From: a virus
Lineage: Duplodnaviria > Heunggongvirae > Uroviricota > Caudoviricetes
Length of the DNA stretch: 6,757 bases
Virus record (IMG/VR): IMGVR_UViG_2526164604_000021
Reading direction: 5' to 3' (one strand)
Shown here: positions 3,297 through 3,423 of the stretch, one piece after another
Layout of the letters: the number at the start of each line of letters is the position of its first letter
Numbering within the stretch: the stretch's first letter is position 1
Translations under genes and position numbers: made by a program
Notes under the pieces: generated by a model
What the model saw: only the letters and a program-made list of their open reading frames with translations
What the model was told of the DNA's origin: nothing
The model's database searches: none

Positions 3297-3305
3297 AAGA
3301 GTCCC

Positions 3306-3364
3306 AAAAAAATAGCCCAGAGCCGTTATGCAGATATTAACAATTGTCTGCGAACGGGGCTGGG
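3306..3364 (-). terminator. Terminator-like or attenuator-like hairpin followed by a U7 tract, ending 9 nt upstream of the ORF166 start codon
   Basis: Three stem segments pair on the plus strand: cccag(3316..3320)/ctggg(3360..3364), ccgtt(3323..3327)/aacgg(3353..3357), gcaga(3330..3334)/tctgc(3347..3351). The run of seven A at 3306..3312 is U7 on the minus-strand RNA, separated from the stem by 3 nt. Confidence 0.4.
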
Positions 3365-3376
3365 CTTGGTTTAATT

Positions 3377-3406
3377 AATCTATGCCAAGTTGACTGTGCC
3401 GTCAAC
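3377..3406 (-). promoter_or_regulatory. Candidate sigma70 promoter for ORF166 (minus strand -35 TTGACG at 3400..3405, 17-bp spacer, -10 TAGATT at 3377..3382) embedded in a perfect palindrome GTTGAC-N6-GTCAAC (3389..3406)
   Basis: Hexamers and spacing were read directly. The palindrome has perfect 6-bp arms and a 6-bp spacer and lies 18 nt downstream of the cI stop. Function is not established. Confidence 0.3.
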
Positions 3407-3423
3407 ATAAAACTTACTTCCTA

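Follow-up and report, generated by a model that had tools for sequence, protein, structure and literature searches.

A decayed lambdoid prophage raises the question of what a hairpin does between a phage repressor gene and a start codon, and to which of its two neighbours it belongs. The spacer in question (127 bp, positions 3297-3423) separates the cI repressor gene from a short reading frame, ORF166, in the 6,757-nt stretch of IMG/VR virus record IMGVR_UViG_2526164604_000021, which we analysed as a whole and call the window. The listing of open reading frames and comparison with RefSeq identify the window as a decayed prophage of the CP-933H type at the thrW/proA site of E. coli O157:H7. A preliminary description had treated the spacer as a leader between cI and ORF166, containing a terminator-like hairpin and a palindrome. 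We found that the hairpin is a covarying RNA structure that accompanies genes for NYN-domain nucleases. On sequence comparison, the spacer is the 5' control region of a mobile cassette of promoter, hairpin-terminator and NYN gene, inserted here, in a prophage of lambda immunity, in the slot of the lambda genes rexAB. The best overall explanation, to which we give a probability of roughly 0.6, is a cassette whose promoter drives a short hairpin RNA that mostly ends at a terminator before the nuclease gene, and whose RNA may also restrain the nuclease.

Structure and covariation of the hairpin

The cassette in the window has the following parts:

3314-3366, minus strand: three-helix hairpin RNA of 53 nt (P1 7 bp, P2 5 bp, P3 5 bp), from folding and covariation
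3366-3360 with 3320-3314, minus strand: helix P1 (AGCCCAG/CTGGGCT), 5 G-C pairs of 7, doubling as terminator stem
3357-3353 with 3327-3323, minus strand: helix P2 (CCGTT/AACGG)
3351-3347 with 3334-3330, minus strand: helix P3 (GCAGA/TCTGC)
3312-3306, minus strand: U7 tract after A3313, completing the intrinsic terminator
3377-3405, minus strand: predicted sigma-70-type cassette promoter from the promoter scan, with -35 TTGACG (3405-3400), a 17-nt spacer and -10 TAGATT (3382-3377)
3389-3406, read on the plus strand: perfect inverted repeat GTTGAC TGTGCC GTCAAC, covering the -35 hexamer and the promoter spacer
2706-3296, minus strand: NYN-domain nuclease gene remnant (ORF166 is 2796-3296), from alignment to phage ev099 gp48

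The terminal loop of the window hairpin consists of 12 nt, CAAUUGUUAAUA. Downstream of U7 lie the nucleotides GGGACUCUU (3305-3297), which begin with a weak Shine-Dalgarno-like GGGA directly 3' of the U-tract and lead to the ATG at 3296-3294, and the distance of 9 nt between U-tract and start codon agrees with the preliminary description. The same description had placed the hairpin at 3316-3364; the three helices and U7 are present, but the true span is 3314-3366, two bases more on each side. A GC-rich stem (P1 with P2 and P3) directly followed on the transcribed strand by A and U7 is the arrangement of an intrinsic terminator. A simple terminator scan missed the hairpin only because of its 12-nt loop, the scan being limited to loops of up to 8 nt. 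Folding of the 65-nt RNA 3370-3306 gave -25.0 kcal/mol with z = -5.7, a value equalled by 0 of 200 shuffles; the full 127-nt spacer gave z = -2.7.

To follow the structure beyond the window, we drew on 185,579 species genomes and on IMG/VR for loci that encode NYN homologues, the most distant at about 41% identity. The results showed a hairpin closing on a U-run 9-50 nt before the NYN start codon in Enterobacterales, Pasteurellaceae, Pseudomonas, Acinetobacter, Halomonas, Burkholderiales, Acidobacteria, Elusimicrobia and Bacteroidales, and the U-run follows P1 in essentially all homologous leaders. The preliminary description had reasoned that any transcript reaching the reading frame must pass a terminator-like element, and in several phyla the homologous genes have this arrangement before them. 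Scanning IMG/VR with a 16-mer returned 38 true hairpin copies, in which the hairpin is almost invariant and the roughly 45 nt upstream of it are variable.

The gamma-type leaders (alignment A4, 25 distinct sequences) had 93.1% of their cells paired, compared with 25-43% in slid controls, and 16 of 17 pairs showed compensatory changes, indicating that the pairing is conserved in homologous loci. A compensatory change was also found in P3 of the Proteus phage Brookers, where GCAGA/UCUGC has become GUAGA/UCUAC. For four of five measures the values observed in A4 were reached by 0 of 500 shuffles; the fifth, the count of further pair types, was equalled in 294 of 500. Model R1, a covariance model derived from A4, scored the window at 79.8 bits and gave one match per locus, immediately before NYN and on the NYN strand, and it found members outside the seed in Halomonas elongata, P. 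aeruginosa and A. baumannii plasmids.

The same alignment shows which strand is selected. G-U pairs far outnumber A-C pairs in A4 (15 versus 2), which indicates that the NYN-sense strand is the RNA under selection. This makes it very improbable that the hairpin acts as DNA, for example as a cruciform or as a site of recombination or insertion that marks the border of the cassette. The cassette borders do lie close to the hairpin, and in the Chaseviridae described below exactly the hairpin is exchanged for a tRNA gene; but model R1 scores the sense strand at about 73-80 bits and the antisense strand at about 21 bits, the U-tract and the promoter are strand-specific, and the real upstream border of the cassette lies before the promoter.

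Leaders of two other types were aligned separately. The second type, from Beta- and Gammaproteobacteria, Acidobacteria and Elusimicrobia (alignment A7, 15 sequences), was 80% paired, with at most 64% in slid controls, and showed compensatory changes in 9 of 15 pairs; the Bacteroidota type (alignment A9, 15 sequences) showed them in 7 of 15. With the gamma model, the leaders of both types score 15-19 bits. Each type also keeps unpaired sequence. The gamma-type loop A-U-U-(G/U)-U-U-A is nearly invariant, and in the second type there is a conserved internal loop, CAGUA(A/C) facing CGA(N)C (A7 columns 10-15 and 51-55), which we take to resemble a loop-E or sarcin-ricin motif. The Bacteroidota leaders keep a single-stranded YUUGAUAAUGG (A9 columns about 52-62) that resembles the gamma-type loop UUGUUAAUA, a likeness that hints at a shared recognition motif. 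Among loci from Dyella, Rhodanobacter and Frateuria (L059-L102), most are without the three-helix leader and have a TAGAAT-type -10 and a simple GC-rich hairpin with a CCCAUCC-like loop; this Xanthomonadales hairpin, whose loop is like second-type loops, may be a reduced variant of the leader.

The conserved single-stranded loop and the discrete unit of about 65 nt from promoter to terminator, ending in a U-tail, would also suit a trans-acting small RNA that binds Hfq and base-pairs with host or phage mRNAs or with the NYN mRNA. We consider this quite improbable: the RNA is almost fully paired and has no single-stranded seed besides the loop, loop sequences differ between the subtypes, and no small RNA in Rfam matches it. 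Pairing of the loop with the ribosome-binding region of NYN, as antisense or by sequestration of the ribosome-binding site, was discarded as well, for across 49 loci the loop was no more complementary than expected to the region where NYN translation starts (mean z -0.05).

Linkage of the leader to NYN genes

To determine which neighbour the spacer belongs to, we compared it with the corresponding spacers of other phages. The lambda cI-rexA spacer aligns with the window only up to the cI stop codon and shows no homology past it, and the cassette replaces rexAB exactly from that codon onward. Stx2a phages with another repressor share 2706-3442 with the window, that is, the NYN gene and the spacer. 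A 141-nt spacer query matched only beside NYN genes in lambdoid phages, with three exceptions. We located the hairpin at 290 places in 5,426 complete E. coli genomes and the 5' part of the NYN gene at 289, each in 275 genomes; with these matching counts and one plasmid match, orphan hairpins in E. coli chromosomes or plasmids were dropped from consideration. The spacer and NYN together were also found with other phage repressors, on plasmids and on integrative elements. The initial view of the spacer as an element linked to cI is thus not supported: the lambda spacer is unrelated, and the spacer moves with the NYN gene.

The identity between the window and the Stx2a phages with a different repressor ends at 3442, 19 nt into the 3' end of cI. 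The junction at which the cassette recombined therefore falls within conserved C-terminal codons of the repressor genes.

ORF166 itself had no match in Pfam and none in PADLOC. The DNA 2706-3500 is 99.9% identical to phage ev099, in which the gene has 285 codons and is annotated as an NYN domain protein. The intact 285-aa protein matches Pfam NYN (PF01936) at residues 158-205, and PADLOC returned only weak NYN and HEC-09 matches for it. A structure model of the NYN protein built with AlphaFold from alignment A8 had a pLDDT of 85.8, and its closest structures were the LabA-like protein 2qip and the NYN domain of MARF1; the acidic residues D164, D170, D189 and D191 are invariant among the NYN homologues. 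In the window, the reading frame is broken by a deletion of 1 nt near 2839/2840, ahead of the catalytic C-terminal half that matches PF01936, and IS1203 takes the place of the last 266 nt or so of the gene. ORF166 is accordingly without D164, D170, D189 and D191, and RefSeq labels the NYN fragments partial or pseudo. By alignment, then, ORF166 is a pseudogene of a gene for a 285-aa NYN-domain (PIN-like) nuclease. Its description as a toxic effector under tightly limited expression has to be given up for the window, since tight control does not apply to a copy that is frameshifted and truncated by an insertion sequence.

With the NYN protein as query, more than 7,000 protein clusters were matched. 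Whether on a prophage, a plasmid or an integrative element, NYN occurs as a solo gene, with no protein partner in the cassette; its neighbours include HigBA in P. aeruginosa, an integrase in Halomonas, and YoeB/Phd nearby on Rep3 plasmids in Acinetobacter. Judging by gene content, the cassette behaves as would a mobile module for toxicity or defence that has no protein partner.

Two loci have other RNA elements near the cassette. In a Thiohalomonadales genome (L058, 3765-3804, minus strand), an abiF RNA motif (RF03085) lies directly downstream of NYN, with 36.3 bits against a gathering score of 37, which suggests a defence-island context. In Pseudomonas yamanorum (L051, 5509-5708, minus strand), a P1/P7-type C4 antisense RNA with a1/b1 target sites lies about 2 kb from the NYN cassette, and this cassette too is close to a phage immunity region.

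Three hairpin copies without NYN were found, in phages BSBP01 and 2KOFFS and in an IMG/VR contig. The lytic Chaseviridae coliphages BSBP01 and 2KOFFS (L002 1294-1355 and L004 2501-2561) carry a bare hairpin of 62 nt that is 98% identical to the window copy and misses one internal-loop base. It occupies the exact site of an unusual 92-95-nt tRNA gene in the relatives GJ1 and SA91KD (L212 599-690 and L213 595-689). The GJ1 gene is a tRNA-Arg with a possible intron in GenBank and Leu according to ARAGORN, and the SA91KD gene, found by ARAGORN only, is Ser; the stretches fetched from BSBP01 and 2KOFFS contained no tRNA. The third copy, in a lambdoid contig (L039, 3565-3699), lies downstream of a Q-like antiterminator gene in a tR'-like position, abutting tRNA-Arg(tct), with no NYN; scanning viral contigs with a second pattern yielded no orphan hairpin besides this one. 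Because relatives carry a tRNA at the site of the orphan hairpin, we also considered that the loop UUGUUAA mimics an anticodon loop. The equivalent of U33 is U in only 17 of 25 sequences and the other subtypes are without the motif, and the idea was set aside as speculation.

The positions of these copies, together with the strong stem, the U7 and the place directly downstream of cI, could be read as those of an intrinsic terminator and nothing else: the equivalent of lambda tIMM at the end of the cI operon, a generic insulator whose RNA has no specific role and to which promoter and palindrome are incidental. The copies after the Q-like gene and between Chaseviridae genes indicate that the element can work as a plain terminator. 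As a full explanation this is nevertheless unlikely. The linkage is to NYN and not to cI, a promoter stands 9-13 nt before the hairpin in most clades, including promoters of the Bacteroidota type, and the sequence of the loop and of the internal loops is conserved. The P22-like Proteus phage Brookers has its hairpin copy flanked by the genes of a LexA-like repressor and an NYN protein; this copy is 93.5% identical to that of the window and is the sole blastn match around there, whereas the NYN proteins are 69% identical. To our knowledge, terminators are not normally conserved to this degree. These results argue for a leader that belongs to the NYN gene.

The surroundings of the cassette in the window are as follows:

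minus strand: integrase gene, N-terminally truncated
1438-2651, minus strand: transposase genes of IS1203 (IS3 family), the element end meeting the NYN remnant at about 2705
3424-4137, minus strand: cI repressor gene, 98% identical to lambda cI
plus strand: cro, cII and the replication genes O and P (frameshifted or truncated)

Integrase, NYN gene, O and P all being damaged in sequence, the CP-933H-type prophage is, on this evidence, wholly defective. Leftward cI transcripts would be expected to end where the hairpin sits (3314-3366).

Promoter, palindrome and proposed mechanism

The promoter scan found the minus-strand promoter of the preliminary description, TTGACG-17-TAGATT overlapping the palindrome, with 9 of 12 positions matched and a predicted transcription start at about A3370. 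The count of promoter-like sites in the region is not beyond chance, and the match alone is unremarkable. The same is true of the palindrome: it is perfect and lies at 3389-3406 as described, and 42 of 200 window shuffles give a match at no more than one mismatch. Support for both comes from the related loci that share them and not from window statistics. A sigma-70-like promoter whose TAnnnT -10 ends 9-13 nt before P1 stands in 21 of 34 distinct non-Bacteroidota leaders (shuffles: mean 0.28, maximum 3), and TAnnTTTG, which we take to be the Bacteroidota -7 box, stands at the same distance before P1 in 14 of 15 Bacteroidota leaders. The start near 3370 fits this conserved position, and the conserved spacing suggests that the RNA is a primary transcript starting a few bases before P1. 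With a covarying hairpin, a U-tract, a promoter 9-13 nt away and a NYN remnant downstream, the window belongs to the family of NYN-gene leader RNAs as defined here.

Over the -35, the repeat TTGAC-N6/N9-GTCAA was perfect in 9 and had one mismatch in 13 of 40 distinct promoter variants, whereas spacer shuffles gave 0.2 and 3.8. At least four separate clades have it, though not every clade does; its carriers include E. coli, Tatumella, Yersinia, two Pseudomonas variants and the L158 clade. As had been proposed, this repeat is probably an operator, for its recurrence in independent clades is far above that in shuffles. The suggestion that cI or CII binds it is unlikely to hold, since cassette and palindrome occur with unrelated repressors and outside prophages. 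The lambda CI operator is of the 17-bp TATCACC..GGTGATA type and the CII site is TTGC-N6-TTGC; the palindrome matches neither. The NYN protein was likewise rejected as the reader, as its model matches only LabA-like and MARF1 NYN domains. In five lambdoid variants (L017, L018, L024, L029 and L035), the TTGAC of the cassette is preceded, at a distance of exactly 30 nt, by another conserved TTGAC(T/A)-TTTGTAAAAT-like block, perhaps a second promoter or extra operator half-sites.

From these parts the following course of events can be proposed. RNA polymerase would start at about 3370 on the minus strand and transcribe the 53-nt three-helix hairpin; most transcripts would end at U7, giving an RNA of about 65 nt, and the nuclease reading frame, which starts 9 nt later, would be carried by read-through transcripts only. 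Transcripts coming from cI would be stopped by the same terminator. The short RNA would then bind the NYN nuclease and hold it inactive, as an RNA antitoxin or regulator. The efficiency of termination, the existence of the RNA of about 65 nt and any RNA-protein interaction are what we infer here. We have little doubt that the hairpin is a conserved functional RNA and terminator leader of NYN, and it probably attenuates NYN expression. That its RNA neutralises NYN in trans is a tentative proposal, made by analogy and possible at best. The RNA is put forward as a partner or inhibitor of the nuclease because unpaired sequences are conserved, the cassette holds no protein antitoxin and the order of parts is that of type III systems and of AbiF/RCd22; conserved loops and the predicted discrete short RNA, with a promoter to itself, suggest a role beyond passive attenuation.

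The conserved unpaired regions, and a terminator directly before the reading frame in all clades, would also suit a conditional attenuator, in which a ligand or a host or phage protein acting on P2, P3 and the loops changes termination, and the nuclease is made on a signal such as infection; the arrangement is analogous to that of transcription-terminating riboswitches. This is rather unlikely. The leader consists of the hairpin only and the start lies 2-6 nt before P1, so that there is no room for an antiterminator fold and a riboswitch-like switch is not expected. The subtypes also conserve different unpaired motifs, contrary to a single small-molecule ligand.

Several points count against a leader RNA that restrains its nuclease. 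The gene is dead in the window, so any leader function here is residual. The three structural subtypes have weakly supported mutual homology, and many Xanthomonadales NYN homologues have a simpler GC-rich hairpin only. The copies without NYN sit where ordinary terminators would. In 3200-3500 we found no tandem direct repeats of the kind seen in type III antitoxins, the leader being a single hairpin. No DNA-binding domain is visible in the AlphaFold model of NYN, and hence no reader of the palindrome there. In the literature we found no transcript ends, termination efficiency or RNA-protein contact for the hairpin RNA.

Relation to known systems

Rfam 15 has no family at the leader, abiF RF03085 included: the window was searched at E up to 1, and 10-16 homologous loci both at the gathering score and with E allowed to reach 10. 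Searches of the searchable literature by sequence strings, by NYN with RNA motif, antitoxin or defence, and by CP-933H small RNA found no description of an NYN hairpin leader. DefensePredictor DS-3 (split PIN domain) was considered as the same system and rejected, being an unrelated protein of 340 aa. The NYN leader hairpin is apparently an undescribed RNA family. The element in the window is a well-preserved relic before a dead gene, and its interest lies in the family that it reveals. If the proposal is true, a large family of solo NYN nuclease genes, from Enterobacteria to Bacteroidota, has a dedicated and apparently undescribed structured RNA, which would explain how a potentially toxic RNase is carried as a single gene and would be a candidate for a new class of RNA antitoxin or attenuator in the slot beside phage repressor genes. 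The E. coli phages ev099 and 2B8 and the Stx2a phages, with their intact cassettes, would offer a cheap test system, and the bare RNA in lytic coliphages a direct handle on possible counter-defence. The covariance model could seed an Rfam family and flag decayed copies such as that of CP-933H in O157:H7.

The AbiF/RCd22 system of the C. difficile phi027 prophage consists of a promoter, a noncoding RNA, a terminator and a toxin gene, and most transcripts stop at the terminator; the RCd22 RNA lowers toxin expression in cis and neutralises the toxin protein in trans (PMC12373285). The NYN cassette is similar in being prophage-borne and in placing a sigma-A/sigma-70 promoter, a structured RNA and a Rho-independent terminator directly upstream of the gene of an RNA-targeting protein that is toxic, or for NYN putatively so, with no promoter between. 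It differs in that the protein is NYN/PIN-like and not Abi_2/HEPN. Its RNA, one hairpin of three helices, has the outer stem serving as the terminator stem and gives no match to the abiF model.

In type III toxin-antitoxin systems (ToxIN, CptIN, TenpIN), the terminator sets the ratio of RNA to toxin; these systems have a role in abortive infection, and phages can escape them by acquiring the antitoxin RNA. The NYN cassette shares with them a contiguous promoter, RNA, terminator and nuclease gene under one promoter, with 9 nt from U-tract to ATG here, and a location on mobile elements. It differs in the toxin, which is NYN (PF01936) and not ToxN, CptN or TenpN, and in having no tandem repeats. 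Whether hairpin RNA and NYN form a new RNA-protein class of toxin-antitoxin or abortive-infection systems, spread on mobile elements in at least four phyla, and whether Chaseviridae captured the RNA as an anti-defence decoy, is doubtful. Under that proposal, the single hairpin would act on the RNase as an inhibitor or pseudo-substrate and keep it inactive as long as infection does not disturb the supply of the RNA, and phage PhiTE, which reportedly captured ToxI, would be a parallel for the decoy.

Lambda rexAB lies in the same slot, directly downstream of cI in the immunity region of lambdoid and P22-like phages. The rexAB genes are co-transcribed with cI with no terminator between, and the cI-rexA spacer is unrelated to the window spacer. 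In Salmonella phage BTP1 the slot downstream of the repressor gene holds BstA, a prophage-encoded defence protein (PMC8585504). For self-immunity, the BstA system uses a DNA element, not a leader RNA. With ordinary terminators and attenuators, the NYN leader shares a GC-rich stem and U-tract between promoter and reading frame; it differs from them in its cross-phylum covariation, its conserved loop and its strict linkage to one gene family.

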